Assembly (NCBI GenBank): GCA_041599275.1
Contig: JBFHWX010000003.1
Coordinates: 1-58,756 of the forward strand
Reading direction: 5' to 3'
Origin: Desulfobulbales bacterium
GTDB lineage: Bacteria > Desulfobacterota > Desulfobulbia > Desulfobulbales > BM004
Length of the DNA stretch: 58,756 nucleotides
Part shown: positions 23,842 through 45,702 of the stretch, piece by piece
How the letters are laid out: the number at the start of each line of letters is the position of its first letter
How positions within the stretch are numbered: the stretch's first letter is position 1
Notes under the pieces: model-generated
Databases searched by the model: none
The model's input: the letters and a program-made list of their open reading frames with translations, nothing else
Told to the model about the DNA's origin: nothing
Position numbers and translations under genes: made by a program

Positions 23842-25737
23842 TCAAGGGGCAAGGGGCAGCTCCACGGTGATCGTGCAGCCCGGGCCCTGGTTGTTGGCGG
23901 CGCTTACCCGGCCGCCCATGGCCTCGGCCAGTTTGCGGACCAGGGCAAGGCCGATGCCGGTGCCCTTGGTGCGCCGGGTGAGCGAGTTGTCCTCCCGGTA
24001 GAAGTCGTCGAAAATTTTGCGGCTCGCCTCCCGTGCGATCCCCGGGCCGGTGTCGGAGAGGCGGACCAGGGCGCGGTCGGTGGTGGCTACACTCAGGGTG
24101 AGCTCCTTGGGCCTGCTTTCGGCGCCGAACTTCAGGCTGTTGTCGATGAGGTTGATGAGAATCTGCACCATGGCCTCGCGGTCGTAGCGGAAGGGTTTGT
24201 CGGCCCGGTTGTCCACGGTGAGGGAGAAACCCTCGCGGCCGATTTTTTCCGCCATCAGCCCCTGCACCTCGGAAATCACCTCCTGCAGGGTGCCGGCGTC
24301 GATCTGGAAGGTGCGCTGGCGGTTGCTGAGCTTGGAGAATTCGAGCACGTTGTTGATGAGTCGGGTGAGGCGGCCGCATTCACCGGAGAGGATGGTGAAG
24401 TATTGTTGCCGCCGCTCTTCGTCAGGGGCGATGTTCTGCTGCAGCATCTCGATGTACATGCGGATGGTGGTGAGCGGGGTTTTCAGTTCGTGGCTGACGG
24501 CGGAGACGAAACCCGCCCGCCGTTCGGCGAGCTCGGAGACCAGGAGGGCGGAGCGGTAGATGGCGAAAAGGCCGGCCAGCATGGTGAGCGCCAGAAGCCC
24601 CGTGGTGAGCATCAGGGTGCGGCGGGCCGGAGACGGCGGGATCTTCTCGCACGACAGGGTGGCCCGCAGAAAGGAAAAGGGCCGGGGGAAGGTGCGGGAG
24701 AGCCGAAAACGCTCGCTTGCCACCGGCGCGCCGGCATGGTGGGCGGCGCTGGTGCCGGAGGAGTCGCTGGCAATGAGCTCGAGGGCGGTGAAGCGGGCCA
24801 GGGGCTGGCCGGCGAAGTGCGCCTCTGCCAGGTGGCGGAGGAGGCGGCCGGTGTCGATCACCAGGCCCTGGCGGAAGATCTGGTTGTCGATGGCGATGCG
24901 CCGGAACAGAAAGACGTGGCCCGGGTCGAGAAGCACCGACTGCAGGGGCGCCACCTCGACGGCGAAGACCGGCGGTCCCTCCGATGGCGGGGAAGCGGAA
25001 GGGTCGGCATTTGCCGAAGAAAAGTCGGCATCGGCGGCGGCCAGATCGCTTCCGGCCTCGGCGAGAGCGGCCAGACCCTCGAGGGCGGCGGCTGGCTGGG
25101 CAGCACTTGGGGCAACATCCTTTGTCGGTTGTGGTTCCTGGACTTGACGGCGGGCGATGTTCGCCGCCTGGCTCACGGAGATCTCCTCCACCCGTTTGCG
25201 TTCCTGGCCAAGCACCGCCTTGCGTTTGGCAAGTGGTTCGCTTGACAGGTACTTGTCGGCGAAACCGGTTGTTTCTTCTTTTTCAGCGGTGGCTTGCCGC
25301 TCTTCTTCGGCAAGGGCGGCGGAGGGCTCGTAGGGCTCGGGCAGCAGCAGGCGTTTGCGGTTGAACTGTTCGTTCAGCTCACCGAGAAAGGAGTGATCGG
25401 CGCTCGCCGGCAGCAGGCCGGCCGGGATCTGCAGGCCGCCGTCGGGGCCGTTCTGCAGGTAGCCGACGATATAGTCCGGTAGATCGGTGCCGCTCGCTTC
25501 GTCCCGGTCCGGGCCACGGAAGGGGGTGGCGGCATAGTCTTCGATGGAGCGGCCTTCCTCCCGGCGGACCACCGCCGCCAGCTCTTCTTCCATGCGGTCG
25601 AACAGGGCGTCGCCGAAATAGCCGAGCTCGGCCCGTTCCTCGCCGGCCAGGCCGCTGAAGGTGCGGGCCACGAGAAAGCCCAGGGGCACGGCCACGGCGG
25701 CCAGGAAGAGAAGAATGAAGAGCCGCAGCCGGTTCAT
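23842..25737 (-). CDS. Sensor histidine kinase with a large extracytoplasmic domain
   Basis: VSHELKTPL, NLIDNSLKF, DTGPGI, GTGIGL; two TMs. Confidence 0.92.
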   Translation of the reverse strand: MNRLRLFILLFLAAVAVPLGFLVARTFSGLAGEERAELGYFGDALFDRMEEELAAVVRREEGRSIEDYAATPFRGPDRDEASGTDLPDYIVGYLQNGPDGGLQIPAGLLPASADHSFLGELNEQFNRKRLLLPEPYEPSAALAEEERQATAEKEETTGFADKYLSSEPLAKRKAVLGQERKRVEEISVSQAANIARRQVQEPQPTKDVAPSAAQPAAALEGLAALAEAGSDLAAADADFSSANADPSASPPSEGPPVFAVEVAPLQSVLLDPGHVFLFRRIAIDNQIFRQGLVIDTGRLLRHLAEAHFAGQPLARFTALELIASDSSGTSAAHHAGAPVASERFRLSRTFPRPFSFLRATLSCEKIPPSPARRTLMLTTGLLALTMLAGLFAIYRSALLVSELAERRAGFVSAVSHELKTPLTTIRMYIEMLQQNIAPDEERRQQYFTILSGECGRLTRLINNVLEFSKLSNRQRTFQIDAGTLQEVISEVQGLMAEKIGREGFSLTVDNRADKPFRYDREAMVQILINLIDNSLKFGAESRPKELTLSVATTDRALVRLSDTGPGIAREASRKIFDDFYREDNSLTRRTKGTGIGLALVRKLAEAMGGRVSAANNQGPGCTITVELPLAP

Positions 25738-26438
25738 GAAAGCTCCTCCAGCCGGTAGCCCTCGCCGCGGACGGTGGCGATGAGGCCGGAGCCGCCGGTG
25801 AGGGCAAAAAGCTTCTTGCGCAGCTTCTGGATGTGGATGTCCACGGTGCGGGTCTCCACCGACGGATCACGGTAGCCCCAGACCTCGGCCAGCAGCTCCT
25901 GCCTCGGCACCACCCGCCGCTTGTGGAGGTGAAGGTAGGCGATAAGATCCATTTCCCTGCGGGTGAGTTCCGCCGCCCTTCCGGCAGCGCTCCGCGCCGT
26001 GAGAGTGAGGGGGTCGAAGACGAGTCCGCCGAGCTCCAGGGGAGCTGCCACCCGGCCGGGCTTGCTGCGGCGCAGCACCGCCTCCACCCGGGCCAGCAGT
26101 TCCTGGAGTGAGAAGGGTTTGCTCACATAGTCGTCGGCGCCGGCCTTGAGGCCGGTCACCACGTCCTCGGCGGCGCCCTTGGCGGTGAGCATGATGATCG
26201 ACTGGTCTGGCTTTGCGCGCCGCAGTTCCCGGCAGATGCTGAAGCCATCGAGGGAGGGCAGCATGACGTCGAGGAGCACGAGGTCGTATTCACCCTTCCT
26301 GGCCCGCTCCAGCCCGTCCGCTCCGTCGGCCTCGCCTTCGGCGGCAAAGCCGTTGAACACCAGCACGTCCAGGAGCCCTCTGAGGATGGCCTGGTCGTCT
26401 TCCACCACCAGGATTCTGGCCTTTGGTTGGTGGTTCAT
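25734..26438 (-). CDS. OmpR/PhoB-family response regulator
   Basis: ILVVEDD, LLDVMLP, MLTAK, KPF; wHTH TRTVDIHIQKLRKK..TVRGEGY; GGAGGA RBS before ATG 26438. Confidence 0.95.
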   Translation of the reverse strand: MNHQPKARILVVEDDQAILRGLLDVLVFNGFAAEGEADGADGLERARKGEYDLVLLDVMLPSLDGFSICRELRRAKPDQSIIMLTAKGAAEDVVTGLKAGADDYVSKPFSLQELLARVEAVLRRSKPGRVAAPLELGGLVFDPLTLTARSAAGRAAELTRREMDLIAYLHLHKRRVVPRQELLAEVWGYRDPSVETRTVDIHIQKLRKKLFALTGGSGLIATVRGEGYRLEELS

Positions 26439-26515
26439 CTTTTCCTCCCGTTTGTTTTTCGGCCAGGCACGGCGGCTGGCCTGTCTGCCCACAGTATAGT
26501 CTCTCGGTGGTTCCG

Positions 26516-26538
26516 GCAAAGTAAAAGTTCTGTAAATT
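26516..26538. promoter_or_regulatory. Candidate OmpR/CpxR-type direct-repeat operator in the divergent intergenic region
   Basis: GCAAA-GTAAA(26521-25)-agttct-GTAAA(26532-36), 11-bp period. Confidence 0.4.
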
Positions 26539-26650
26539 TTCCGGGCTGTTCTTTTGCGGTTCTTTGCATTGAGTTGAGCGCCGGCGGCGTTAGGCTGGAA
26601 GCATGGCAAAGGTCAGTAACGCACCTCACCCGAAAACGGAGGAACCCGTC

Positions 26651-28072
26651 ATGCAGAAACAAAGATTACGTTCATTTCTCGCCGTCGCTTCGCTCATCGT
26701 CGTCACCAGTCTTCTCATGCTGGCCCAGGCCGGGGATCTCCCCGGCATGGTGCCCAAAAAGCCCATGCCGCCGCCTGCCGCCGGCCTTCTGCGCCTGGAC
26801 GGCCGCCTGGTGCAGGAACAGATCTTTACCGGTGGCGACGGCCGTTTCGAGTTGGCCTTTACCATGGATGCCACCGCCATGACCGCCGGCATGCTGGAAA
26901 CGTCGCAAGCGGTGGACGTGGTGGTGGTGCTCGACCGCAGCGGCTCCATGCAGGGCCAGAAGCTTGAGGACGGCCGCCGGGCACTGCTGGATCTTCTCGA
27001 CCGGTTGTCGGAGCAGGACCGGCTGGGACTCGTCACCTACAGCAACGATGCCGACATCATCTGTGATCTGCTGCCGATGAACGCTGGCAACCGCAGGCGG
27101 GCAGAAATTGCCCTGCGCTCGGTCGCCGCCGGCGGCGGCACCAATCTGGGAGACGGTTTGGCCGCCGGCCTCGCTCTCTTCAGCCGGGCCGGCGGCATGC
27201 GCAACCCCAACGGCCGGCTGATTCTCGTTTCCGACGGACTGGCCAACCAGGGGGTGGTGGATCCTGGACAACTCGGTGCCATGGCCGCCGGAGCGGTGCG
27301 GGAAGAGTTTTCGGTGAGCACGGTGGGCGTGGGCAGTGACTTCAACGAGCAGCTCATGACCCGTCTGGCCGACCAGGGCGGCGGCTCCTACCACTATCTC
27401 GAGGACCCGGCCCGGTTCGCCGCAGTGTTGCTGGAGGAATTCCAGACGGTGCGCCGCCTGGCCGCCACCGGGCTCGAGGTGGAGGTGGCCCTGCCCGACG
27501 GCGTCCGTCTGGTGGAAGCCGCCGGATACCCCATCGAGCAGCGCGGCCGGCTCGCCGTGTTCCGCCCCGGCGACCTGGAGGCGGGGCGCAAGCGTTCTCT
27601 CTTCCTCGGCTTCCAGGTGGACCCCGGCCAGGAGCGGCGCTACGAACTGGGCGAGATCACCGTCCGTTACCGCCAGCAGGGCAGCCGGGCGGAGGTTTCC
27701 TTCGACCGGCGGCTGGCGGTGAACTGCGTTGCCGACCGGGCTGTGGCCCTCTCCTCCATCGACAAGGACGACTGGGAGAAGAAGGTGCTGCAGGAGGATT
27801 ATTCCAGGCTGCGCGACGAAGTGGCGGGCGATATCCGGGAAGGGCGCCAGGAAGAGGCCATGGCCCGGCTCGACTCCTACCGGGCCGAAAAAGAAGAGGT
27901 GAACCGGGTGGTGGGCTCCAGCGCCGTGCAGGAGAACCTGGAGGCGGGCCTCGATGCCCTGCGCTCGCAGATCACCGAGACCTTTGCCGGAGCGCCCGCC
28001 GAAGTGGCGGCCAAACAGAAGGCCAGCGCCAAGGATCTGCAGTACCAAGCCTACGAGCAGCGGCGCAAGTAG
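26651..28072 (+). CDS. Exported von Willebrand factor A domain protein (YfbK-like)
   Basis: Signal peptide; MIDAS DRSGS, GGTNL, LVSDGLANQG, GVG.DFNE.LM..LA..GGG.Y. Confidence 0.9.
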   Translation: MQKQRLRSFLAVASLIVVTSLLMLAQAGDLPGMVPKKPMPPPAAGLLRLDGRLVQEQIFTGGDGRFELAFTMDATAMTAGMLETSQAVDVVVVLDRSGSMQGQKLEDGRRALLDLLDRLSEQDRLGLVTYSNDADIICDLLPMNAGNRRRAEIALRSVAAGGGTNLGDGLAAGLALFSRAGGMRNPNGRLILVSDGLANQGVVDPGQLGAMAAGAVREEFSVSTVGVGSDFNEQLMTRLADQGGGSYHYLEDPARFAAVLLEEFQTVRRLAATGLEVEVALPDGVRLVEAAGYPIEQRGRLAVFRPGDLEAGRKRSLFLGFQVDPGQERRYELGEITVRYRQQGSRAEVSFDRRLAVNCVADRAVALSSIDKDDWEKKVLQEDYSRLRDEVAGDIREGRQEEAMARLDSYRAEKEEVNRVVGSSAVQENLEAGLDALRSQITETFAGAPAEVAAKQKASAKDLQYQAYEQRRK

Positions 28073-28122
28073 ACGGAGAGGGCCGGGCGGCAAGAAACTA
28101 TCGACAAAAGGAGGCACTGATC

Positions 28123-28692
28123 ATGGGACTTATGACACGCTTGGTGAGGATCTGGAAGGCCGATGTGCACGGCGTCATGGATCAATTGGAGGACCGGCAG
28201 CTGGTGGTGAAGCAGTGTCTGCGGGAAATGGAAGAGGATCTGCTGCGCTTGGAGGCGCGTCTCGAACAATGCGACCGGCAACTCCGTGGGGCAGGTAAGC
28301 GGCTCGAGGAATGGCGCGATGAATTCCAGCGCCTTGGGGGTGACCTCGAGATCGCCCTGGAGGGTGGCAAGGAGGAGATCGCCCGGATGATCGTCAGAAA
28401 GCGGCTCGGGCTCCGGGCCCACATCGACGAAACCGAACGCCGGGCCGCGGCCCTTGACGAAGAGTGCGGCCGCCTCCGGGAAAAGCTTGCCGAGCGGCGC
28501 CGCATCCATGAGCGGTTGCAGGGCCGGGCCGCCGCCTCTTTCCCGCGGGGGCAAGAAAGCGGAAGCGGCCTGTGGGAAGAGGGCAGTCGCCTGGCGGTGC
28601 CGGAGCCGGAGGCCGAGGAAATCGAGCTCGAGTTGCTCAAGGAAAAGGCCCGGTTGCGGCAGGCGGCAACGGAAAAGGAGGTGAGGCCATGA
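28123..28692 (+). CDS. PspA/IM30 family protein
   Basis: MGLMTRLVRIWKADVHGVMDQLED..LVVKQ.LREME; AL..GKEEIAR; coiled coil; C-terminal IELEL..K. Confidence 0.85.
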   Translation: MGLMTRLVRIWKADVHGVMDQLEDRQLVVKQCLREMEEDLLRLEARLEQCDRQLRGAGKRLEEWRDEFQRLGGDLEIALEGGKEEIARMIVRKRLGLRAHIDETERRAAALDEECGRLREKLAERRRIHERLQGRAAASFPRGQESGSGLWEEGSRLAVPEPEAEEIELELLKEKARLRQAATEKEVRP

Positions 28693-29334: not shown

Positions 29335-29448
29335 ATGACATCCAGGGAAGCGGTCAAGATACTGATGCTCAGTCCTTTCTATTTCATCCTCACCCTGCCG
29401 GAGCGACGGATGCTGGTGGACGAGCTCTGCGCTCTGCACGGGCGCTGA
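29335..29448 (+). CDS. Small protein, 37 aa (absent from the ORF track)
   Basis: GGGAGGAAAACGCC-ATG; MTSREAVKILMLSPFYFILTLPERRMLVDELCALHGR; a terminator follows. Confidence 0.65.
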   Translation: MTSREAVKILMLSPFYFILTLPERRMLVDELCALHGR

Positions 29449-29472
29449 AAAGAGCGGGTAAATCCTATCCAC

Positions 29473-29526
29473 AGAGCGGCCTTGGCCTGGGTAAATCTTA
29501 CCCAGGTCAAGGCCGCTCTTTTTTTT
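29473..29526 (+). terminator. Long hairpin terminator (22-bp stem, one G-T pair) with an embedded palindromic site
   Basis: AGAGCGGCCTTGGCCTGGGTAA-ATC-TTACCCAGGTCAAGGCCGCTCT-TTTTTTT. Confidence 0.75.
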
Positions 29527-29576
29527 AAAAAAAGTTATTTTGTTGTTTTTGTGTATTGTTTTTTATTCGCCTGGGC

Positions 29577-29594
29577 CTGGCATGTCGCATGCAT
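29577..29594 (+). promoter_or_regulatory. Putative sigma54 promoter of sRNA-1
   Basis: CTGGCATGTCGCATGCAT with GG(29579-80)-N10-GC(29591-92), preceded by an AT-rich tract. Confidence 0.65.
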
Positions 29595-29604
29595 TACAGA
29601 GCGT

Positions 29605-29688
29605 AAGTTATGGCGAAGGTTTTCTCTTCCTCATACCTCCTTCCTTTCCCCGCACCCGGCCCTCCCCCTCAGGGCCGGGTATTTTTTT
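29605..29688 (+). ncRNA. Putative sigma54-dependent base-pairing sRNA-1 (~84 nt)
   Basis: Lies between a -24/-12 promoter and a + strand terminator ACCCGGCCCT-CCCCCTC-AGGGCCGGGT-ATTTTTTT; CU-rich core CTCATACCTCCTTCCTTTCCCC; no complete ORF inside. Confidence 0.6.
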
Positions 29689-29716
29689 GCCGAAAAAACG
29701 ACCCATTGGGGCGTTG

Positions 29717-32700
29717 TCATTGGTCGCTCTTCTTCTCGGCAGGCAGCAGGGGGCCAAGGATGGTGAAGGGCAGCATCAGGGTGTCCTTCACCATGCCAAG
29801 CAGACCCTCGCCGATGGCCTCCGGTGGCAGCACGGTGATGGCCGGCTCCGCCAGCGGCCCCTTCACTCCCAGGGGGATGGTGATCACCGTCTGCCGCCGG
29901 CCGCCGAGTACGCCCCCCAGGAGCGGGACCTTGCTGACGATGGCGTCCAGGGTTTTCAAAGGAGCGATGAGCACGGTCATGTCGGCGGTCATGCTTGCCA
30001 GATCGAGGCTGCCGAGGATGAAGAGGTCGATGCCCTCGCCGCGGACCAAAGCCCGTTTGATGGTGAGGATGTCGTGGTCGATTTCGGCCTCGAGGAGCAG
30101 TTGCGAAAAGGGAAAACCCTCCTGCTCGTAATCGTCCACCGTGGCGGCGGAGAGGATGCCGGTGAGATTGACCACGCTGAAAATTTGCGAGAGCATTTTC
30201 AACCGCAAAATCCGTCCCGCCCTGGAATGAACGGAAACGGAGCCCCGGGACCAGCGGCCGCTCGCCCGTTGCAGTTTTATGTCGCTCGAGAAGGAGCCGC
30301 TCACCACGTTCTGGCGGACTTCCAGGCAAGGCAGCACCTCCTCGAAGCGCAGTGGCTGGGCCGGATCGTTTTTGAGAAAAACGGTGCTGGCGCCCAGGGC
30401 GTCGCTTGAGTGGATCTCTCCCCGCATGGGCAGGCCACAAAGCAGAGCACGGTCGACGGTGATGGAAGAGCTCCGGCCGGGGTGCAGAGTGACGGTGCCG
30501 GCCAGCTCTTGAAAGGTCAGGGTGCGGGCCGGTTTTTCAGCCAGGGTGTGGGCGGTGGCGGTGGTGAAACGCCCGCAGGAGAAGCGGATGGTTCCCCTGA
30601 CAGAGTCGGCCAGGCCGGTTTTTTGCTGGTTTTCCGGGATGTTTTTTCTGGCTCCCTGGAGGTCGGCGAGGTACTGGCGAAAGTGCAGGGAGGAAAAGGT
30701 GGCGAGCAGGGAATCGAGGTTGTCGCGGCTCAGCGCCGCCGCCTTGAGATCGAGGCTGACCCGCGGCCCGGCGGAGTCGAAGTCCAGGCTGCCCCGGGCG
30801 GTCATTTCCTCGCCCCCGTACTGAACGGTTAGTTCGTCCACCGCCAGGGAGCTTTCCCGGCCGGCCAGGGAAAGGGCCGGGATGGAGAGGAAATCGTTTT
30901 CCGCCACCGGTTGCCAGATCATGGCGCGGCCTTGGAGGTTACCGGAAAAGTCCATCGGTTTGTCGCTGCCCTCTTCCCGCAGGAGCCAGTTTCCGGTGAG
31001 GGAGCCCTGCTGCAGGCTGCTTGTCTCGAAAAGCGCCTGCAAAGTGGCGGCCTCCAGGCTTCCTTGCCAGCGTATGGCAAATGGGCCGCCGTTCTTGGCA
31101 AGCCTGATGTCGAGCTCGAGGTCACTGCTTGCGGCACGAAACCGGCTCTCCGTGAGTTCGAAAATTTTTGGCGTGTTTCGCAGCTGGAACTGCACCGCTG
31201 GCTCCCCTGCACCGCCGCGGCCCGCCGCCACGGTGCCGTCCACCCGGGTCTCGCCGCTGCCCCAGCTCACCGAGAAATCCCGCAGGGTGCAGGGCAGGCG
31301 CGGAAAATAGGCCGGCGGCACCCATTTTTTTTCTTTGACCCAGCGGCCCGCCTGTTCCTCTACGGTGGTGTTGAGAAACAAAGTGCCCTGCCACGAGCGG
31401 AAAGCGGCGTGCTGGAGTGTACCGCTCAAGCCGATGCCGGTATCGCCCACGGTGCCGGTGAGTCGCTCCAGCTCGAGCCCGCTCTCCGAGAGGGTGGCGG
31501 AGCCCTCGGCGCCATGTACCGGGCCCGGCAGCAGGGGGGTCTGCCAGCCCAGGTTCTGGCCGGAAAAGGCGATACGGAAAGAGCGGCCGTCGTCCTTTCC
31601 CAAGCCGCCTTCGAACCGCGCCTGGTGCACGGTCAGGTTGCCGGAGGCGGTGGTGACCGTCTTTTCGAGCTCCGGGCCGCCCAGGCCGAGGCGGCGAAGC
31701 TCGGCCAGGAGCGCGCCGGCGTCGAGTTGGGCCGCCAGGCTTTCGAGGTGTAGAACCGTTTTCCCTTCACCCCAACCGACGCTGCCCGTTGAGGAGTCTA
31801 TCCGCAGTTTGCCGCTGCCGCCGGCTATTGCCTGCCAGCTCACCCGTTTCGGCTCCACCCGCAGTCCGCCCCGGCTGAGGGTCAGTGGATCGCCCAGGCG
31901 GTCGTAGCGGACAGTGGCCCGCTCCGTGGCCTTGATCTCGAGTTGGGTGGTTATCTCGTGCAGCCTGTCGCCCAGGAAAAGGTGGCCCCGGGCCCGGCCG
32001 CTGGCTTCGGAAAAGCGGCTGAGCTCGCGCCGAAAGGGCTCGCTGGGCACCACCCGGTGCAGCACCGCCGGCAGTTCGGCGAGGTCTGCGTCGAGGTCGA
32101 GACCGAGCGAAAAGGCCCGTTGTTCACCGGTCAGGTCGAGTCGCAGGGTACCGTTGGTGCCCCTGCTGTTTCCCATTTCGGCCGCAAGATCGCGGCCGCT
32201 CAGGGTGCCACCGGCAATCTCGATGGGGCCGCGGGCGCCGGTGAGTTTCAGGTCGCCGTAGGGTACGTGGATGGTGGCTCCGTCGACTTCGGCGGTGACC
32301 CGCATCGAATTGATGTCGCCAAAAGCGGCCGGCTCGCCGTGAAAGGAAAAGGAGGCGCTGCGGGCCGAGCCGCCCTGCACGATGTCGCAGACCAGTCTGG
32401 CCACTTTGTGCTCGCTCCAGAGGGCGAGAACAGCCCCCCGGACGCCGGTGAGGTCGACCCCGGCAGCCTCCAGATCGATGAGCCATCCGGCGGCCGGCGT
32501 TTCGCCGTCTCCCGAAAGAGCGGCCACCGGCAGGCGGGCCAGCCGGCCGTGAAGGGTGAAGGCAGGCTCATTCACCTCGAGCCGCTCGATGTCGAGCTCG
32601 AACGATTTCTCTTGCCGGTGCAGACTGAGGGCCGTTTTCCCCAGGCGGACCGGCAGGGAGGTGCTGCCGGTGGCCACCGAAAGAGAAGGCAGGTCGCCGG

Positions 32701-33442
32701 TCAGACGCAGGGTGTATTCTTGCTGGTTTGCAGCCTCGAGGGTACCGGTCCAGTCCAGGGGAGCAGTCTCGAGGCGCAACCGGCGGTCGAGAGCCGTCGG
32801 CAGATCCCCGGGCAGCTCGAGGCCGGAAAGCGTATACCGCAGGGAGGCGCGGCCCGAGGTGGGGTCAATGCCGCCTTCCACCGAAAGCAGGTTGGCAAGT
32901 GACACAACTCCGCTCTCGAGGCTGCCCGATATGCCGTCTGCCCCCAGGGCGATCCTGGCCTCGAGTGGCGAAAGCTCCAGGTGTTGGCGGCCGAGCAGCT
33001 CGCCTGTCTTCTCGTCGAGTTCGACAACAAGGGCGCCGTCCTGCAGCACGATATCGGCTCCGGGCAGGGCAAGTTTCCTTTGAACGCCCCCGGGTGCCAT
33101 TTCGGCCGGGTTGAGCAAGAGCCGGGGGCGCAGGCAGACGACCCGGCCGATGGCCACTCGGCCGGCGAGCAGCCCGACGACATCCGGAGAGATCCTGGTG
33201 TCGGGCAGGGTCGCGGTGAAGCCGGGTCCGCTCAGCCGGGCTTCGCTCAGGGAAAAGTGGGGAAAGGGCAGCCAGTGGAATTCGATGAGGGGGCACTCCA
33301 CCTGGCAGTCCAGGCGCAGGGCGAGCTGCTTGTTTATCTCTTCCCTGACCCGCTCGGTCTGCAGCAGGCGTGGGCTGAACACGGCGAGCAGGACGAGGAC
33401 GGCGGCCAGGATGAGAAATTGAAAGAGTCTCGTTCTTCGCAT
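29717..33442 (-). CDS. AsmA-like (YhdP/AsmA_2 C-terminal domain) envelope protein
   Basis: N-terminal TM anchor, long beta-rich body, C-terminal G..DL....D..VL.APLKT.D.IVSKVPLLG.VLGG....VKGPL.EP. Confidence 0.8.
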   Translation of the reverse strand: MRRTRLFQFLILAAVLVLLAVFSPRLLQTERVREEINKQLALRLDCQVECPLIEFHWLPFPHFSLSEARLSGPGFTATLPDTRISPDVVGLLAGRVAIGRVVCLRPRLLLNPAEMAPGGVQRKLALPGADIVLQDGALVVELDEKTGELLGRQHLELSPLEARIALGADGISGSLESGVVSLANLLSVEGGIDPTSGRASLRYTLSGLELPGDLPTALDRRLRLETAPLDWTGTLEAANQQEYTLRLTGDLPSLSVATGSTSLPVRLGKTALSLHRQEKSFELDIERLEVNEPAFTLHGRLARLPVAALSGDGETPAAGWLIDLEAAGVDLTGVRGAVLALWSEHKVARLVCDIVQGGSARSASFSFHGEPAAFGDINSMRVTAEVDGATIHVPYGDLKLTGARGPIEIAGGTLSGRDLAAEMGNSRGTNGTLRLDLTGEQRAFSLGLDLDADLAELPAVLHRVVPSEPFRRELSRFSEASGRARGHLFLGDRLHEITTQLEIKATERATVRYDRLGDPLTLSRGGLRVEPKRVSWQAIAGGSGKLRIDSSTGSVGWGEGKTVLHLESLAAQLDAGALLAELRRLGLGGPELEKTVTTASGNLTVHQARFEGGLGKDDGRSFRIAFSGQNLGWQTPLLPGPVHGAEGSATLSESGLELERLTGTVGDTGIGLSGTLQHAAFRSWQGTLFLNTTVEEQAGRWVKEKKWVPPAYFPRLPCTLRDFSVSWGSGETRVDGTVAAGRGGAGEPAVQFQLRNTPKIFELTESRFRAASSDLELDIRLAKNGGPFAIRWQGSLEAATLQALFETSSLQQGSLTGNWLLREEGSDKPMDFSGNLQGRAMIWQPVAENDFLSIPALSLAGRESSLAVDELTVQYGGEEMTARGSLDFDSAGPRVSLDLKAAALSRDNLDSLLATFSSLHFRQYLADLQGARKNIPENQQKTGLADSVRGTIRFSCGRFTTATAHTLAEKPARTLTFQELAGTVTLHPGRSSSITVDRALLCGLPMRGEIHSSDALGASTVFLKNDPAQPLRFEEVLPCLEVRQNVVSGSFSSDIKLQRASGRWSRGSVSVHSRAGRILRLKMLSQIFSVVNLTGILSAATVDDYEQEGFPFSQLLLEAEIDHDILTIKRALVRGEGIDLFILGSLDLASMTADMTVLIAPLKTLDAIVSKVPLLGGVLGGRRQTVITIPLGVKGPLAEPAITVLPPEAIGEGLLGMVKDTLMLPFTILGPLLPAEKKSDQ

Positions 33443-33706
33443 CGTCTGGCCCGGGCAGGCGACCGGTGGTCGGGAAATGCTGCGGGGCCGGCAAACAGGC
33501 AACGCAGCGTGGGAGGTCGGAAAAAATGTTCTGGCCCGGGCTCGCCCCGGCGAAACGGGTGGTTTCGTGGAGAGAGGGTCCTCTGGGACGCGGGGCCGAA
33601 GAGCCTTTCAAGGTATCATTTTTCCAAGGAGTCCACAAGGCGGATCGCGGCGAAGCGAATGCACCGGGTTCGGCGGCATGGTCTTCACTCGCTGGACGGG
33701 ATGAAA

Positions 33707-33902
33707 GTAAAAAAAATTGTACGCCGTTGGGGGATCGCTTCCCTGCCCCTCGCCTGCTGGGCCTTTTCGGTGGCATGGCGGTCGACCGGCGGTTGTGTTT
33801 TTTGTGGTTAAAAAAATTGTACCTGTTGGGATGTCGCGGGTTTATGACATTTTCCACCCTGGCGAGCTGGTGGGCGGCAGAGAAAAGTTTAAAAAATTGT
33901 AT
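33707..33902. repeat. Three dispersed copies of GTWWAAAAAATTGTA plus an ATGTC-N10-GACAT palindrome (candidate enhancer sites)
   Basis: Copies start at 33707, 33807 and 33887; palindrome at 33831-33850. Confidence 0.65.
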
Positions 33903-33990
33903 CGGACCTCGAGCCCATGAGAAGCCGTGTGCTTCGGATAACCACCCTGAATTCCGAGCTAAAGGGCCATTGTTTTCTGTTGCTGTGGAT

Positions 33991-34008
33991 GTGGCATGCT
34001 GGTTGCAA
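33991..34008 (+). promoter_or_regulatory. Putative sigma54 promoter of sRNA-2
   Basis: GTGGCATGCTGGTTGCAA, near-consensus TGGCA(C/T)-N5-TTGCA; GG 33993-94, GC 34005-06. Confidence 0.75.
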
Positions 34009-34017
34009 TACCTATGG

Positions 34018-34093
34018 CAAGAGCCAATTAGCTCTTATCTCCTTTCTCCGAAAAGGCCGGCCTTGTCCCCCCAAGACCGGCCTTTTCATTTTT
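34018..34093 (+). ncRNA. Putative sigma54-dependent base-pairing sRNA-2 (~76 nt)
   Basis: 5' hairpin AAGAGC-CAATTA-GCTCTT; unpaired ATCTCCTTTCTCC; terminator GAAAAGGCCGGCCTTG-TCCCCC-CAAGACCGGCCTTTTC-ATTTTT. Confidence 0.62.
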
Positions 34094-34212
34094 AAGGTTT
34101 CCCCGTTTTTTTCAAAGAAAACCATGACCGCCGGCCGGGCTGCGGCTCCTGCGGTTTGCGCGCTTCCGGCCGGGCAGTTTTGCCGCGGGAAGCCGTGTCT
34201 TCCTGGTGCGCG

Positions 34213-35151
34213 ATGGAATTGACTGAAACAAAGGTGGCGCTTCAGGCATGCGCCGGATACCGGCTCCAGCCCATGAAGGACGGGGTCGAGCATTTGTGCC
34301 GAGCCCTCGGCTTTTCGGTTTCCGCCGGCCAGCGAATTCTGCTCAAGCCCAACCTGGTGAGCGGCGGAGCCAGCAGTGGGCTGTCCTGTACCCACCCCCG
34401 GTTCGTGGTGGCGGTGGCGCAGTGGTGCCTTGACCATGGGGCGCGGGTGGCGGTGGGTGATTCACCGGCCTTCGGCTCTGCCCGTTCGGTGATGGCCGCC
34501 TGTGGCTTGCTGGATGCACTGGGTAAACTGCCGGTGCGGTTGGCGGATTTTTCCAAAGTGCGGCGGGTGCGTTTGGCTTCGGGAGAGGAGGTGGGACTTG
34601 CCGAGGAGGCCCTGCAGTGCGACGAGCTGGTCAATCTGCCGCGGGTCAAGGCCCATGGGCAGCTCTTTGTCACCCTGGCGGTGAAGAATTATTTCGGCAC
34701 CGTGGTCGGCCTTCGCAAGCCGTGCTGGCATATGCGTCATGGCGGGCAAGCGGGCCGCTTCGAGGAACTGCTCGTCGATCTGCTGGCGGTCCTGCCCGGC
34801 GGCATCAGCCTGGCAGATGGTATCGAGGCCATGCACCGGGACGGGCCGGTTTCCGGCGAGCCCTTTGCCCTTGGGGTGCTCGGGGCGAGCCGCAATCCGG
34901 TGGCCCTCGACACGGCGCTGCTCGAGATCCTGCGGCTCTCGCCTGGTGCCAGCCCCCTGTGGCGGGAAGCGGCCCGCCGCCGGCTTCCCGGCGTCCGGCT
35001 GAACCATGGGGATTTTGTGCTCAACCAGCCGGCGGAGTTGGCCAGGGCCGGCTTTCAGGCGCCGGCGGAGTTGCAGCCTATCCGTTTCCAGCCCTGGCGG
35101 GTGGCCCGCGGCGTTGGCAAACGGTTGCTGACTTTCCTGGTTCGGCGTTGA
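34213..35151 (+). CDS. DUF362 domain protein
   Basis: ILLKPNLV...CTHP, VGDSP.FGS, NLPRVKAH...TLAVKNYFG, DGIEAM...GP..G, NPVALD. Confidence 0.88.
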   Translation: MELTETKVALQACAGYRLQPMKDGVEHLCRALGFSVSAGQRILLKPNLVSGGASSGLSCTHPRFVVAVAQWCLDHGARVAVGDSPAFGSARSVMAACGLLDALGKLPVRLADFSKVRRVRLASGEEVGLAEEALQCDELVNLPRVKAHGQLFVTLAVKNYFGTVVGLRKPCWHMRHGGQAGRFEELLVDLLAVLPGGISLADGIEAMHRDGPVSGEPFALGVLGASRNPVALDTALLEILRLSPGASPLWREAARRRLPGVRLNHGDFVLNQPAELARAGFQAPAELQPIRFQPWRVARGVGKRLLTFLVRR

Positions 35152-35357
35152 CCGGTTTCTCCGCTCTTGATCTTTTTCGGGGGTGCCTGTACATTTAGCG
35201 CCATTTCCAGGCGGAAACCGGTCGTTGCGGTGGCTGGTCTTTTTCCGCCAAAGCAGCCGGGGCCGTCGGGATCCCGGCCTTCCCGTTGCCGGGTAAGTGC
35301 TTCTCGGCTTCTGGCATCCCGATCTCTTTGAAAATTCGATGGACAAGGAACCGTATT

Positions 35358-36110
35358 ATGTTTGATCTGCAGGGTAAAGTTGCACTGATCACCGGCGGCT
35401 CGCGGGGTATCGGGCGGGCCATTGCCCTCCGTCTCGCCGCCAGCGGCGTCAATCTGGTGGTCAACTACGTGCGCCACAAGCGGGATGCCGAAACCACCGC
35501 CGAAGCTGCCAAGGCACTGGGCGTGAAATGTCTGGTGATCAAGGCCAACGTGGCCAACGACGAGGACGTGGCCGAGATGTTCGAGCGCATCAAGGCTGAA
35601 TTCAACGCCCTGCACATCCTGGTCAGCAATGCCGCCTCGGGGGTGCTGAAGCCGGCGCTTGAACTCAACACCCGGCATTGGAACTGGGCCATGGACATCA
35701 ACGCCCGGGCGCTCCTCACCCTTTCCCACCACGCCGTGCCGATGATGTCCGCGGGCGCCCGGATCATCGCCGTTTCCAGCCTCGGCGCCGTGCGGGCCAT
35801 TGAAAACTACACGGCGGTGGGCGCCTCCAAGGCCGCCCTTGAATCCCTGGTTCGCCACCTGGCGGTGGAGCTCGGCCCCCGGGGCATTCACGTCAACACC
35901 ATCAGCGCCGGCGCGGTGGACACCGAAGCCCTGAAAAAATTCCCCAACCGCACCGAGATTCTCGACACCGCCCTGGGACGCACCCCCATGGGTCGCCTCA
36001 CCACGCCCGAGGATGTGGCCGACATCGCGCTCTTTCTCTGCAGTGACCTGGCCGCCATGATCCAGGGCCAGACCATCGTGGTCGACGGCGGTTATTCGAT
36101 CCGCGGCTGA
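35358..36110 (+). CDS. fabL: Enoyl-ACP reductase FabL-like short-chain dehydrogenase
   Basis: TGGSRGIG, SNAASGVLKPALEL, SSLGAVRAIENYTAVGASKAALESL, DTEALKKFPNR. Confidence 0.85.
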   Translation: MFDLQGKVALITGGSRGIGRAIALRLAASGVNLVVNYVRHKRDAETTAEAAKALGVKCLVIKANVANDEDVAEMFERIKAEFNALHILVSNAASGVLKPALELNTRHWNWAMDINARALLTLSHHAVPMMSAGARIIAVSSLGAVRAIENYTAVGASKAALESLVRHLAVELGPRGIHVNTISAGAVDTEALKKFPNRTEILDTALGRTPMGRLTTPEDVADIALFLCSDLAAMIQGQTIVVDGGYSIRG

Positions 36111-38208: not shown

Positions 38209-39891
38209 TCAGCGCGGCAGGGTCTGCAACAGGCCAGGAAAATCGTTTTCGATCTGTTTGTCGATAAGGGCCATGTTGCCCCGCACCTTGTCCTCGAGCC
38301 CGGCCTCCGGGTATTTCGTCAGGATTTCCTGCAACTCCCGCCGGGAAGCGAGCAACAACTCCTTCTTGCGGTCCGGGGCGCCGGTGTTCTGGGCCTGGAC
38401 GAAGAGGTTGGCCGCCTTTTTCCGGCGTTCCGCCGCGGCGCCCTGGGCCGCCTTGGCAAGCTGTTCCCGGGCAGCGCCATCGTAGTCGGTATTGAGCAGC
38501 GACCGGTAGCTGGCGATGGCTTCATCGTACTGCTGCTGGTCGAGCTGCCGGTTGGCTTCTTCCCACTGTTCCGCCAATTCCTCCGCCGAACCGCCGGAGA
38601 CCGTACTGAAATTGCCGCCGGCCGCCGCCTGGCTGTCGGCCATGGCCTGGCGCACGGTCTGCTCCATGTCCGCCGGCAGGGGGGAGCGGGACAGTTCCTC
38701 GAGAATCTTCATGGCCTCGGCATGCCGGCCCTGCTCGGCAAGGCGGTTGGCTTCGGTGAGTCTGGTGCCGGCTTGAGCGCGCAACTCGTCGTCGCTCATT
38801 TCCTCTATGGGGAGAAACTCCGTGGCTGGGGCGGGCGTTTCGGCGGGCCGCGCGCCGGGGGACTGTTGCGCGGGCAGAGCGCCGGAAGCGGCGTCGAAAC
38901 CGCCCTGCAGGGCGGTGAGCCGGCCTTGGGCGTAGGCGCGCTGGGGTAGGATTTCGTCGGCTGCCCGCAGCATCGTCGTGTAGTGGTCTCGGGCTTCTTC
39001 GAGCAGGCCCCGGGCCACCAGCATGTCGGCCAGTTGCCGCTGCAGGAGCCATGGGGCGCCGGTGGGCGGCTGGGCCTCGGTAACTTCCCGGTAGACCGCG
39101 ATGGCCTCGTCGTATCTGCCGCTGCGCAGCAGAGCCTCTCCGTAAAAGCGCTTGGCCTCCAAGGGGATTTCACCGCCGCTCGCTTTCAGGTCGTCGTAGG
39201 CGCTGATGGCCTGGTCGTACTGGCGCTGCTCCACCAGGCTGCGGATCCGCCCGGCCACTTCCTCTCGCTCGGCGGTCGTGACAGTCTGCTGGGCGTCACC
39301 GCTCAGGGTGTCGAGCAGGCGGCCGCAGTCGCTCTCCAGGTAGGAGATGTCGCTCAGCAGCACCTCAGAGACCTGCTGGGCCGGGGCGCTGCCCGTGTCG
39401 GCGATGCGGGCCCTGAGGGCGGCGTATTCGCGCTGGATCCCGGTGAGCCGCTCCATGCAGACGCTGGCCTCGCCGGCTTTGCCGGAGTCGAGCCGGTTCC
39501 AGGTGCCGGTGGTGTGCAGCTGCTGCCAGAGCCGGTATTTGTCGGTGACCACCGCCAGCCGCTGTTCGACAAGATGGCTGTGGTCGGCAACGGGCTCCGG
39601 GGGGGCTGGCGCCGGTTCGCTTGGCAACGGCGGTATGGCCTGCTCCCTGATGATTCCGGTTTCGCCGCTCCGCACGATGGGCGCCTCCCGGCCGCTGGCG
39701 GGCCGGGGTGGAGAAGAGGGGCGGCTGTCCGGTGGGTCGACGGTGACCGGCCGGGCCACCGGCGCTCCGCCGGGCACGACCGGGTAGCGGGCGGGGGGCG
39801 GGTAAGCCGGGGGCGGGGAGGCGCAACCGTGCAGCAGGGTTGCCAGCAGCAGGAGGGCGAAAGGTGTGCTCTGGGGCAATGGTCTGTTCAT
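38209..39891 (-). CDS. TPR-containing lipoprotein with a Pro-rich linker
   Basis: Lipobox LLHG-C, Pro-rich N-terminus, helical repeats (YDQAISAY, GRYDEAIAVY, YDEAIASY). Confidence 0.78.
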   Translation of the reverse strand: MNRPLPQSTPFALLLLATLLHGCASPPPAYPPPARYPVVPGGAPVARPVTVDPPDSRPSSPPRPASGREAPIVRSGETGIIREQAIPPLPSEPAPAPPEPVADHSHLVEQRLAVVTDKYRLWQQLHTTGTWNRLDSGKAGEASVCMERLTGIQREYAALRARIADTGSAPAQQVSEVLLSDISYLESDCGRLLDTLSGDAQQTVTTAEREEVAGRIRSLVEQRQYDQAISAYDDLKASGGEIPLEAKRFYGEALLRSGRYDEAIAVYREVTEAQPPTGAPWLLQRQLADMLVARGLLEEARDHYTTMLRAADEILPQRAYAQGRLTALQGGFDAASGALPAQQSPGARPAETPAPATEFLPIEEMSDDELRAQAGTRLTEANRLAEQGRHAEAMKILEELSRSPLPADMEQTVRQAMADSQAAAGGNFSTVSGGSAEELAEQWEEANRQLDQQQYDEAIASYRSLLNTDYDGAAREQLAKAAQGAAAERRKKAANLFVQAQNTGAPDRKKELLLASRRELQEILTKYPEAGLEDKVRGNMALIDKQIENDFPGLLQTLPR

Positions 39892-40090
39892 TCCGGAGTG
39901 GTCCTGGAATCTCCCGTGCCGATGGCTCCGGAAGGCTGAAAAAGGTAATGCAGCGTTACGGCGGAGTCCATGCGGCAGGGTTTGGGTGTGCTCTCGGGCG
40001 GTTGAAAATAGCTCAAGATACCAGGTGGTCGCCGCTTTTGTAAAGGGGCGGGGGAAAACCCTGGCCGTTGCTCTTTGTTCCTGCTCCCAC

Positions 40091-43000
40091 TCAGGGCTCA
40101 GGTTGCCAGAAAGGCTGGAAAAAACGGCTGGGCTGGAAGTCACCCGTATTGGTGGCCACCCCGAAGGTCACCACTCTGGCTTCGCCGCCCCCCCAGGCCG
40201 GCATGCCGTTTTCCTGGTTGACCGGCATGGTGATCTGGCCGATGTCCGGGGTTTGCAGAGACAGTTCCACGGGGCGGGCGCTGATGTTGGCGGTGAAGGC
40301 AAGGTCCACCAGATCGAGGGCATCGACGAATGCCGGATTGTGCTGGATGGCCGCGGCGATCCGGCTCCAGATCTGCAGGGCGCCCTGGGCGCCGGAAATG
40401 CGGATATCCCGGTGCTTCATGGGTTGGTTGTCGTCAAAGCCCACGTAGGAGGTTACCGTGTAGCCGTCGGCGGTGGTGATGGAGCTCGTGCCCGGGGTGG
40501 GGCCAGGCACCGCGCCAGCGAAGGCCGAGTTGACGAAACGGTTGGCGGTGCCGGTCTTGCCGAGCAGGGGAAAGCGGATTTGCAGGCCGGCAAGCTCAAG
40601 ACTGTTGTCCCGGGCTGGCACGGTGAACAGGACGTTTTCATGGGCGTGACGCCCGGTGCCGAAGCGGATGACGTTTTTCAGAATGTCGCTTGCGGCCACC
40701 ACCGCCTGGGGGGAGAGGACGCGGGTGACCTGTGGCTGGTTTGCGGCGTAGAGTATCTGGCCGTTGTTGTCCTCGATCCGGTCGATGATGGCCAGGGAGT
40801 CGTCGCTCTCCCGGATGGCAAGGCCCGTGGTCAGCCCCTCGTAGGCCCGGGCGGTTTCCAGCAGACTGGTGACGTTGGAGCCCAGGGGAAAGGAGAGCAC
40901 CGGCTGCAGGTCGCTTTCGATACCCAGTGCCCGGGAAAGTCCGATGACGTAAGAGATGCCGGCCAGTACCCGGAAATCCGGCAGTTCGTGGAGCACCTCC
41001 TCGCTGTAGGGCGGGAAGGCGGCAAGCCGGTTGTATTCCCGGTCCATGGCCCGTTGCAGGAGATCGAGGGTGGCGGCCCGGACCCGACCGCCGACATAGA
41101 CCTCGTCCCAGGCAATGGCGGGGGCCTGGGGCTCGCTGGCGAAAACGTCGAAAAAGCCCCGGCTTGCCGGCGGCGGGGCCTGGTATTCGTAGGGGCTCAT
41201 GGGCCGCCAGTTGGGAGGCAGGTTGTAGCCGTCGGTGAAGATCACGCTGCCGGTGGCGGCATCGCGGTAGAGCCGGCCGCCCGTGCCGTTTCCCGTACCG
41301 TTGCGCAGTTGCGCCAGCTCGTTGCGCAGCCCCTGAAAACGCAGGAAATTTCTGGTCAGGATGTTTTTCCGCAGCTCCAGTTCGTCCCGGGAATAGTCGC
41401 CGTTCTTGACGGCCTTCTCGCCTTCCTGCACGGTCATGGCCAGGTACTGGTCGAAGTCGGCGCCGTAGTGGAGTTTTTTCAAAAAATCGAGTTCCTGCAG
41501 AGCGCCGGCGAAGATGAGATCGGGTTCGATCTCCCGCACGGCGTTCTGAAAGGCGGCGCGTTTGAGGGTGGTGGCGTTGACCAGAATGCCGCGCCGGTCG
41601 CGGATCCGGGCCGCATAATCACGGTACGATTCGTCGTCGCGGCGGGCCAGGTCGAGATGGGTGAGAACTTCCTTGAACTGGGCCGGGGTGAGCCGGTCGC
41701 AGAGATGGTAAAGCAGCCAGACCGAGGCCAGGTTCTCGGATTTCACCCCGGCCCAGTCCATGGAGACAGTGGCGTGGGGGCTCACGTGGTCGGGGCGCGG
41801 GAAGTAGGCCTGGCCTTGGTAAATGAAGACGTCGCGTTCGTTGTTGAGACCGTCGAGATTGTTCCAGCCAAGCTGCAGGGCGGCGGCGTAGACCAGCGGC
41901 TTGATTGCCGAGCCCATCGGCCGCTTGGCGTCGAGAGCGCGGTTGTAGTAGAAATTCTCGACGCCGCCGATCATGGCTTTGATCTTGCCTTGTTTGAGAA
42001 CGATGGCGCCGCCTTGGAGCCGGGGGTATTTTTCCAGGTCGAGCTGATAGAGACCGGTCTCTTCGTCCTTTTCCCCGAGGCTGACGTAGACCGTGTCGTT
42101 TTCCTTGATTTCGGCCAGCAGCAGCGGCAGGTCCCGGGCCGAGGCCTCGGCCCACTTGTTCTTGCGGTGCTTGACAAGAGAAGCGAGCAGATTTTGGAGA
42201 CCTGCCTGGTCGATGATCCCGGCGCCGTCCCGCAGAGTGTTGCTGAACACCACCCGGATCTCTGGCGCCTTGCCGCCTTCGACCTTTTCCACCGTGCCGA
42301 AGAGAAAGGCGCCGGGCCGGGCCTCGATGTCGCCCCGGTAGGTGGCCGCCGCGTACTCCTGCTGCACGGTGGCGCGCTCGTAGCCCCGCAACAGGGTGTC
42401 CACGGAGGAAAGCTCGCGGCGCAGCGCGAAAAGCGCCTTGTCCTGCAGTTCTTTGTCCACCGTGGTGTAGATGCGGATTCCCGAGGTGGAGACGTTGTCG
42501 ATGCCGTTTTCCTGCAGGGCTTCCTCCAGTTCGTCACTGCCCAGGGCTTGCTTCACCGCGTCCATCACGGTGTTCAGCGGATGAAACATCCGGCCGCGGT
42601 GGAAAGGGATTTCCTGGCCGGACCAGGTGGAGTGGGTGTCGGCGTCGATCATGCCGAGGCTCCGCATCTGGTCGAGCACATAGCGGGTGCGGTCGGCGGC
42701 CCGGCGGCGGGCTGCGGTCTCGCTCTCCTCGGTCTTCTGGATAAAGGGGTTGTAAGCGTTGGGGCGTTTGACGCTGCCGGCGATGAAAGCGCATTCCAGG
42801 GGGCTGAGGTCGCTTACATCCTTGTCGAAGTAGTAGCGGGCCGCCACCCCTAGGCCGTGACCGGTGCCACTCACGTAGAACTGGTTGGCGTAGAACTCGA
42901 AAATTTTCTCCTTGCTGTAATGCTGCTCGAGTTTCAGGGCGTAGAGGAGCTCCTTCAGCTTTTCGGGCAGCGAACGGTCCTTGCGCTTGAAGAGATTCTT

Positions 43001-45657: not shown

Positions 45658-45702
45658 CAGAGGGCGGAAATCCTCCGTCCCCCGGAGTCTGACAACAGTT
45701 CG

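Follow-up and report, generated by a model that had tools for sequence, protein, structure and literature searches.

Two putative sigma-54-type small RNA genes flanking yhdP in a Desulfobulbales bacterium

The stretch of DNA analysed here, 58,756 nt of contig JBFHWX010000003.1 from a Desulfobulbales bacterium (assembly GCA_041599275.1) and hereafter called the window, carries a YhdP/AsmA-like gene with one short unit on either side of it. An initial annotation read these units as a pair of sibling sigma-54-dependent small RNA (sRNA) genes with pyrimidine-rich seeds. The locus therefore raises the question of whether the two units are genuine sRNA genes, whether they form one family, and which signals and targets they might connect. 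Our comparison with related genomes indicates that both are probably genuine sigma-54-type sRNA genes, which we call sRNA-B (unit 1) and sRNA-A (unit 2). The window probably holds two new sRNA families of a known design, and the regulatory circuit reconstructed around them in silico is well supported.

The anatomy of the units, their conservation and covariation, the conservation of their promoters and upstream sites and the co-variation with a target were computed in silico. The genome of the window (G000) is a 3.51-Mb assembly with 63% GC and 95% completeness; its contigs carry C-numbers, the genomes of relatives are coded G001 and onwards, and fetched loci carry L-numbers. The related genomes are non-independent samples. 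Three covariance models were used: R1, built from the transcribed part of sRNA-A relatives only, with the promoter excluded; R2, a broader and likewise promoter-free RNA model; and R3, built from nine sRNA-B sequences (alignment A6) that include unit 1 itself. Gene calls at the compared loci were greedy picks of open reading frames (ORFs), and the nominal +1 was set by taking the C of the promoter GC as -12.

Anatomy of the two units and the sRNA-A family

The layout that had been proposed for both units, running from a GG-N10-GC promoter through a 5' hairpin and an unpaired CU-rich tract to a C-loop terminator, was found with all its elements in place. Unit 2 (sRNA-A, about 76 nt, 34018-34093 on the + strand) is preceded by the sigma-54-type promoter TGGCATGCTGGTTGCA (33992-34007, +), which stands at a constant distance in homologs. 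Its predicted fold consists of a 5' hairpin (34019-34036, +), the unpaired seed ATCTCCTTTCTCC (34037-34049, +) and a terminator with a C6 loop followed by a T run (34050-34087, +). Unit 1 (sRNA-B, about 85 nt, 29604-29688, +) was delimited by its fold, its R2 and R3 scores and positional orthologs convergent with yhdP, and its GG-N10-GC promoter of the sigma-54 type, TGGCATGTCGCATGCA (29578-29593, +), is matched by TGGCACGGTTTGTG[AT]A at the same place in the orthologs. Here the fold predicts an unpaired CU tract at about 29636-29652 (+), containing ACCTCCTT with its CTCCTT, and a terminator at 29654-29680 (+) with the loop TCCCCCT and a following T7. The RNAs taken alone have minimum free energies of -28.4 kcal/mol (z -4.18, unit 1) and -31.4 kcal/mol (z -7.66, unit 2), and in neither case did any shuffled sequence fold equally well. 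When the two units were aligned pairwise, they had in common the promoter, CTC[AT]TA[CT]CTCCTT[CT]CT and the C-loop terminator.

The further description of both units as free of complete ORFs is not literally true, as long frames overlap both of them. From an ATG at 29610, a frame of 173 aa reads across the unit 1 terminator, antisense to yhdP, and the frames 33917-34222 and 33466-34095 overlap unit 2. The GC content by codon position in these frames is unlike that of coding sequence, and no conserved ORF was seen.

The promoter pattern alone does not discriminate these units from background, because a loose version of it had 49 matches on both strands of the 3.51-Mb genome against about 35 expected from base composition. 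Only two of the 49 matches, units 1 and 2, were followed by CTCCT and a T5 run. Likewise, a promoter lay just upstream of an R2 match in two of 15 cases genome-wide, again units 1 and 2 only, with about 0.002 such cases expected by chance. The remaining 13 R2 matches in this genome are terminators after tRNA, 5S-like RNA or protein genes. Several covariance-model matches were set aside as ordinary terminators, namely those on C165 (a tRNA with its terminator), C113 and C152 (after 5S-like RNA), C46, C18 and C50, the promoterless L049:602-671, and C21:24692 at the end of an enhancer-binding protein gene. A separate element at C15:4011-4097 (-), scoring 29.0 bits with R2, has a CU tract and a C6-loop terminator after the 3' end of a gene with a CxxCH-rich C-terminus. 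It has no promoter and may equally be a 3'UTR-derived RNA or a chance match.

Unit 2 scored 75.1 bits with R1, and BLAST found matches to it in 17 of 40 relatives; a match in G036 was rejected, as it covers the terminator only. In all 18 sRNA-A sequences compared, the -24/-12 element keeps its distance, and the AAGAG...CTCTT hairpin, the invariant ATCTCCTTTCT[CT]C and the C-loop terminator are present. The terminator stem covaries in these 18 sequences while the loop remains C-rich, and RNAalifold applied to their alignment (A3) gave 22 pairs, six of them with compensatory changes. In a larger alignment of 33 sequences, 19 of 22 pairs showed double changes and 95.2% of cells were paired, a level reached by 0/500 shuffles and compared with 40-65% in slid controls; this alignment was fitted to the model, which tempers its covariation counts as evidence for the family. 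The CU tract is the best conserved part of the RNA, the loop reads CCCC in 31 of the 33 sequences, and the linker is 90% pyrimidine.

The promoter provided a separate check. Among relatives, GG-N10-G[CA] ended 1-21 nt upstream in 15/15 new R1 matches of at least 35 bits and in only one of ten matches below 35 bits. Because R1 contains no promoter and yet every strong match bears one, this constitutes an independent validation of the sRNA-A family. Matches below 33 bits are ordinary terminators, except that in G020. In a class-wide sample, sRNA-A was matched at E<=1e-4 in 57 of 121 genomes, for the most part as a single copy, and the share of genomes with a match differed among families (14/15, 12/16, 20/41 and 1/37). 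Conservation and covariation in relatives, which the initial annotation had set as a check, were thus found for unit 2. Further class-level loci that were inspected had the promoter in 8/8 cases and the upstream palindrome described below in 7/8, by regular expression. On the opposite side, three of five extra matches in metagenome-assembled genomes (MAGs) had no promoter by regular expression upstream of the match start. Two genomes outside the window's family, G039 (L039, L048) and G030 (L042, L050), contain two promoter-bearing sRNA-A-type copies each at unrelated loci, one of the G039 copies adjoining a flagellin gene.

sRNA-B and the relation between the two RNAs

Unit 1 is unconvincing on its sequence alone, because BLAST against the 40 relatives found no homolog, only chance matches of 15-33 nt, its R1 score was 17.6 bits (E 0.069 in the window), and R2, with which it was second in the window at 23.1 bits, ranked it 11th of 15 genome-wide (E 0.51). 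It is also the most divergent row of A6. The conserved ortholog promoter has a perfect -24, and its -12 reads GTG[AT] rather than TGC, which is unusual for sigma-54; the sRNA-B copies of G006 and G011 showed no promoter in the stretch inspected. These results all speak against unit 1 as a member of a conserved sRNA family, and its membership rests on position, promoter and upstream sites. The deviation at -12 (e.g., L084, L085, L137 and L182) is itself conserved across genera, and the promoter in the window's genome, with the canonical GC, is closer to GG-N10-GC than those of the orthologs.

The conservation of sRNA-B shows in its position. A second-copy match in G015 was found convergent with the yhdP 3' end, in the same arrangement as unit 1, and R2 matches convergent with yhdP 3' ends were present in G015, G008, G011, G009, G005, G010 and G003, as in the window's genome. 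Pattern-based searches added copies in G016 and G001. With R3, sRNA-B copies of at least 55 bits were found in 15 of the 19 genomes of the window's family, nine of them training sequences and six new (G012, G018, G006, G013, G017 and G011). Unit 1, which belongs to the training set, scored 57.6 bits. Outside the window's family, no R3 copy of at least 55 bits was found among the genomes searched. The copies lie within 0-2.3 kb of yhdP, and the locus shared in the family runs from B through yhdP, and in many genomes aconitase, to A.

The view of the two units as one multi-copy family was not established; each RNA is essentially single-copy per genome, and cross-detection between them is partial. 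At E<=0.01, the A-only model R1 reported one sRNA-B copy (G015, 39.8 bits), and the B-only model R3 picked up nine sRNA-A members at 28-42.5 bits, among other matches of similar score. A and B appear to be two families of one design, possibly old paralogs, and the case for common ancestry is borderline. The comparisons support a reading of each unit as a small transcription unit of the sigma-54 type that is conserved and stands on its own, and we infer that both are expressed and depend on sigma-54 and an activator.

Upstream sites and predicted targets

The repeated or palindromic sites that had been noted upstream of both units are real. Loci of sRNA-A carry the palindrome GTACAAAAAATTGTAC, which precedes the -24 element by about 95-110 nt and was detected by a loose regular expression at 28 of 35 loci. 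With no more than one mismatch allowed, 23 of 41 relatives have this palindrome at roughly one copy per genome, and almost always at the sRNA-A promoter, which makes sRNA-A the apparent main target of its activator. Three copies of the upstream site A (UAS-A) were found by motif search and sequence comparison in the window, GTAAAAAAAATTGTAC (33707-33722), GTTAAAAAAATTGTAC (33807-33822) and GTTTAAAAAATTGTAT (33887-33902), all of which fit G-T-[ATT]-A6-7-TTGTA[CT]; the third lies 105 nt upstream of the promoter, where relatives carry GTACAAAAAATTGTAC. The intergenic region of about 550 nt between yhdP and sRNA-A (33443-33990) that contains them has three copies where most relatives have one, and it lacks the aconitase gene that is present there in many relatives.

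A different motif stands upstream of sRNA-B. Upstream site B (UAS-B) consists in the window of the half-degenerate copy GGGTAAATCCTATCC (29456-29470, +) and the palindrome GGGTAAATCTTACCC (29489-29503), the latter in the loop of the terminator hairpin of an upstream 37-aa ORF. Tandem sites of the GGGTAA-N3-TTACCC type were found upstream of the orthologs in G015, G008, G009, G005, G003, G013, G012 and G017. In the window's genome GGGTAANNNTTACCC occurs exactly only twice, at unit 1 and at C34:11145, where it lies 157 nt upstream of AGGCATGCTTCATGCA and the gene of a secreted 147-aa PF13801 protein. PF13801 is the Metal_resist family of ZraP/CpxP/Spy-type proteins. In G023, a UAS-B pair with a TGGCAC...TTGAA promoter precedes another PF13801 gene, which is divergent from a sensor kinase. 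The exact palindrome also precedes, by about 126-135 nt, a gene for a trypsin-like protease of the HtrA type in G013 (C29, L183:559-573) and G006 (C144, L185), and no canonical -24/-12 element is visible between palindrome and gene in these two. Matches to the UAS-B pattern in G026, G038 and G024 were rejected, as they look intragenic or due to chance.

The genome encodes RpoN (PF04552, one match) and 23 enhancer-binding proteins (PF00158, 23 matches). No enhancer-binding protein gene was found in the window or beside the ZraP-like gene on C34, and such a gene adjoins an sRNA-A locus only in G030, as a fragment. Because the upstream sites are two different conserved motifs, two different enhancer-binding proteins are plausible. 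The earlier suggestion of separate activators is thus in keeping with the sites. In E. coli, ZraR is reported to activate zraP as a sigma-54 activator and to have a link with envelope stress (PMC7657598). Since UAS-B is shared with PF13801 genes and ZraR activates zraP in E. coli, we tentatively propose a Zra-like activator for sRNA-B, an identification that falls somewhat short of an even chance.

The seeds of both units contain the core of the 16S anti-Shine-Dalgarno (anti-SD) sequence, and the unpaired pyrimidine tracts (CUCCUUUCU, ACCUCCUU) resemble the 3' end of 16S rRNA. Both RNAs rather likely act by pairing with ribosome-binding sites. The longest perfect complement of the sRNA-A seed at a start codon in the genome is AAAGGAGAUAAGAG-AUG, 14 nt ending at the AUG, in front of a gene on C58 (2455-1094, -) for a 454-aa protein with a signal peptide. 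This protein had no Pfam family and matched the NCBIfam model "outer membrane homotrimeric porin" below its cut-off (E 5.6e-11); porin-like orthologs are present in 17 relatives. The site GGAGAUAAGAG-AUG is kept in G013, G001, G008, G010, G012, G004 and G028, and variants with 1-2-nt bulges occur in G007, G005 and G003. In G040 and G025, where sRNA-A reads CUCUUUUCUCC, the site reads GGAGAAAAGAA, a swapped A-U pair in which the seed A became U and the site U became A, and in G035 and G020 the changed seed matches GAG-AUG-AAG. Divergent porin-like sites are bound best by their own sRNA-A according to duplex energies. Over 17 genomes, cognate pairs averaged -20.09 kcal/mol compared with -18.46 kcal/mol for non-cognate pairs, a difference reached by 0/10000 permutations and resting on about four independent lineages, which lessens its weight.

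Other observations count against this target. The site in G011 carries an uncompensated change, and in a crude duplex scan of the window's genome the porin-like site ranked 66th among 2921 ORF starts. The top match to the sRNA-A seed in that scan was GGAGAAAGGAGAUcAAGAG-AUG of an uncharacterised 126-aa ORF (C32:6952-7348, +) at -29.0 kcal/mol. Several other candidates carry signal peptides, and the single-genome scan of duplex energies was judged too noisy for naming targets. Considering both sides, we put the chances that the porin-like mRNA is a direct target of sRNA-A at about even. A UAS-A-like palindrome with one mismatch lies at C58:2621-2636, just upstream of the promoter of the porin-like gene, which is sigma-70-like. 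Since G007 is the one genome among the 17 relatives in which this palindrome recurs, a feed-forward loop acting through it was dropped from consideration.

Hfq (PF17209) was not found in the window's genome or in five relatives with 98-100% completeness. In the circuit that we envisage, two independent sRNA genes, one on each side of yhdP, would each have a sigma-54 promoter activated by an enhancer-binding protein about 100 nt upstream, and a strong intrinsic terminator would end the transcript after about 76 nt (sRNA-A) or 85 nt (sRNA-B). The input of sRNA-A would be a protein binding GTACAAAAAATTGTAC, a site nearly unique to this promoter in each genome. That of sRNA-B would be a protein binding tandem GGGTAA-N3-TTACCC sites and also driving the ZraP-like periplasmic chaperone gene in the window's genome. 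Because UAS-B is shared with this gene, sRNA-B would most likely be the non-coding arm of a Zra-like envelope-stress response. Each RNA would expose an unpaired pyrimidine tract resembling the 16S 3' end together with a C-rich loop, and would act in trans without Hfq to block purine-rich ribosome-binding sites. We infer repression as the outcome, with the mRNA of the porin-like outer-membrane protein as the best conserved candidate target of sRNA-A.

Genomic setting, alternative explanations and known systems

The gene between the two units (29717-33442, -) matches Pfam YhdP at 7e-18 and AsmA at 1.1e-05; its likely start is the ATG at 33442, and the longest ORF extends to 33502. Downstream of unit 2 lie a DUF362 gene (34214-35151, +; Pfam 5.9e-46), whose start is placed at the ATG at 34214 within a longest ORF from 34156, and an SDR gene (35286-36110). 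In the usual setting, sRNA-A has an AcnA-type aconitase gene before it and DUF362-SDR(-Maf) after it, all on the same strand. A divergent AcnB replaces the AcnA-type enzyme in G035 and G020, the upstream neighbor in G000 and G007 is a divergent yhdP, and sRNA-A points into yhdP in G005. Directly upstream of unit 1, the 37-aa ORF MTSREAVKILMLSPFYF... (29335-29448, +) has a strong AGGGAGG ribosome-binding site, no Pfam match and a 20-bp terminator hairpin (29473-29519).

Further genes were noted in the window. A VWA-domain gene followed by a PspA/IM30-like gene (Pfam 6.3e-11) lies further upstream of unit 1 (26603-28692, +). PspA genes elsewhere are classic sigma-54 targets, and no -24/-12 match was found upstream of the VWA/PspA-like genes of the window. 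An OmpR-type two-component pair is located at 23845-26609. The region 38212-47018 is rich in envelope genes and encodes a TPR protein, a PBP1-type transglycosylase/transpeptidase, an SLT-LysM lytic transglycosylase and a TraB/GumN family protein.

The setting of unit 2 suggests another explanation, in which a sigma-54 promoter would drive the DUF362-SDR(-Maf) operon with unit 2 as its 5' leader, the terminator as a conditional attenuator and the CU tract as the binding site of a protein or ligand governing read-through. In 19 of 34 loci DUF362 is the first ORF after sRNA-A on its strand, which makes a role in cis or read-through into DUF362 conceivable and detracts from a stand-alone RNA. It also directly follows in five of eight further MAG loci, which were themselves fetched via DUF362, and in the window's genome the gap of roughly 120 nt that separates the terminator from the start of DUF362 shows no obvious promoter of its own. 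We nonetheless rate a leader or attenuator as unlikely, for three reasons. What follows sRNA-A differs between genomes, being YhdP in G005, Maf in G025, SDR in G037 and an unrelated gene in each of G039, G024, G031, G027 and G032. The terminator is strong, with a long covarying 17-bp stem and a U run and no conserved antiterminator pairing seen. Unit 1, the sister of unit 2, points at the 3' end of a convergent gene, so that there is no gene for it to lead. Co-variation of the seed with the ribosome-binding site of a distant porin-like gene speaks likewise for a trans-acting RNA.

A trans-acting RNA might still be a global one, either a mimic of the 16S 3' end or a C-rich decoy that titrates Shine-Dalgarno sequences or sequesters an RNA-binding protein. 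The generic anti-SD core of the seeds would fit such a role, as would the many near-equal candidates of the duplex scan (mean -13.3, standard deviation 4.2, with 65 genes above the porin) and the lack of a detected Hfq to confer specificity. Conservation nevertheless exceeds the Shine-Dalgarno complement, since CUCUUAUCUCC pairs with the spacer up to the porin AUG, and this extension co-varies in G040/G025 and G020/G035, so that we hold a purely global role to be improbable, slightly more so than a leader. The least probable explanation, and to us a very improbable one, concerns unit 1, which in the window's genome could be a chance or decaying element, a sigma-54-like match beside the bidirectional terminator of convergent genes, leaving unit 2 alone functional. 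The missing BLAST homolog, the failure of RNA models lacking unit 1 to separate it from ordinary terminators, and its divergence within A6 would all be expected of such an element. Yet the joint presence of promoter, covariance-model match and UAS-B is far beyond chance, the same three recur at the same place relative to yhdP in many genomes of the family, and the unit 1 promoter is nearer to canonical GG-N10-GC than those of its orthologs.

Two small transcription units with separate inputs thus remain our preferred reading, and a broader one can be built on it. Hfq-less Desulfobulbia may possess a two-input sigma-54 control of the envelope in which sRNA-B is the arm of a Zra-like sensor and sRNA-A the near-sole target of a second activator, both being anti-SD mimics that silence the major porin and other secreted proteins from a fixed cassette around the lipid-transport gene yhdP. 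We regard this broader picture as speculative and doubtful in its entirety. If it is true, it would make sRNA-B the first sRNA attributed to a Zra-type response, and the regulon the first characterised sRNA regulon in the class. The principle is not new, because sRNAs that depend on sigma-54 are already known from Qrr, GlmY/GlmZ and others. What is new is that both families are absent from Rfam 15, and that the in-silico circuit is unusually complete, comprising promoter, two distinct activator sites, a chaperone gene that may be co-regulated and a candidate target that co-varies. It suggests that an sRNA arm can form part of a Zra-type envelope response, and it offers an entry point to post-transcriptional regulation in environmentally important, hard-to-culture and apparently Hfq-less sulfate reducers. 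The two covariance models could serve to annotate these genes in hundreds of genomes.

The initial annotation could assign the units to no named RNA family, and Rfam 15 agreed, giving no match at gathering threshold in the whole window. At E<=10 there was only sub-threshold noise, ar14 at 21.5 bits against a gathering score of 58.8 for unit 1 and CyaR at 19.6 against 47 for unit 2, so that by Rfam gathering score neither unit belongs to Qrr, GlmY/GlmZ, CyaR or ar14. RsaE, RepG and the CcsR/alpha-r14 "CCUCCUCCC" RNAs pair with G-rich ribosome-binding sites through unpaired tracts or loops that are rich in pyrimidines. A and B resemble them in the CU-rich anti-SD tract and differ in promoter type and taxon, with Rfam scores far below gathering. 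The sigma-E-dependent MicA and RybB and the Cpx-dependent CpxQ are envelope-stress sRNAs that repress outer-membrane protein synthesis. In these systems, a stress regulon with a periplasmic chaperone or protease also has an sRNA directed at porin ribosome-binding sites, as proposed for A and B, but their promoters are of the sigma-E or sigma-70 type.

NcS25 of Burkholderia is reported to repress a porin, and we considered it as a sigma-54-dependent porin-repressing sRNA; it was set aside, as its authors found no sigma-54 motif upstream of ncS25 (PMC10117139). The ZraR regulon of E. coli is reported to comprise zraP, zraSR and mgtA and no sRNA (PMC7657598). Our literature searches for sigma-54 sRNAs in sulfate reducers led only to studies of other bacteria and returned no paper naming the group in its title or abstract together with such an sRNA. 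The nearest taxon with a comparable case is Desulfovibrio vulgaris, in which the sigma-54-type response regulator DVU0679 is reported to have Dv_sRNA2 as its main target (PMC3333781). That organism is a sulfate reducer of a different order and its sRNA lies beside the regulator gene, whereas no activator gene was found in the window.

GlmY and GlmZ of Enterobacteriaceae are, like A and B, an sRNA pair with sigma-54 promoters, a dedicated activator and a link to envelope synthesis, as described in two reports (PMC3045617, PMC4152352). GlmY, however, is a protein decoy and GlmZ activates one mRNA, while the CU-rich anti-SD seed of A and B predicts repression. Qrr1-5 of Vibrio, controlled by LuxO, resemble A and B in being short sigma-54-dependent sRNAs with an upstream activator site, an unpaired seed, an intrinsic terminator and several genes per genome. 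They differ in that A and B are barely alike in sequence, have different upstream motifs, belong to another taxon and give no Rfam Qrr match, and in that Qrr targets a quorum-sensing regulator, whereas the predicted target of sRNA-A is a porin. Qrr RNAs act with Hfq, whereas the search for an Hfq gene in the window's genome found none. A single qrr promoter can receive input from two enhancer-binding proteins, as stated in two reports (PMC10162802, PMC3730234). The likeness of sRNA-A and sRNA-B to the Qrr RNAs is therefore one of design and not of membership.

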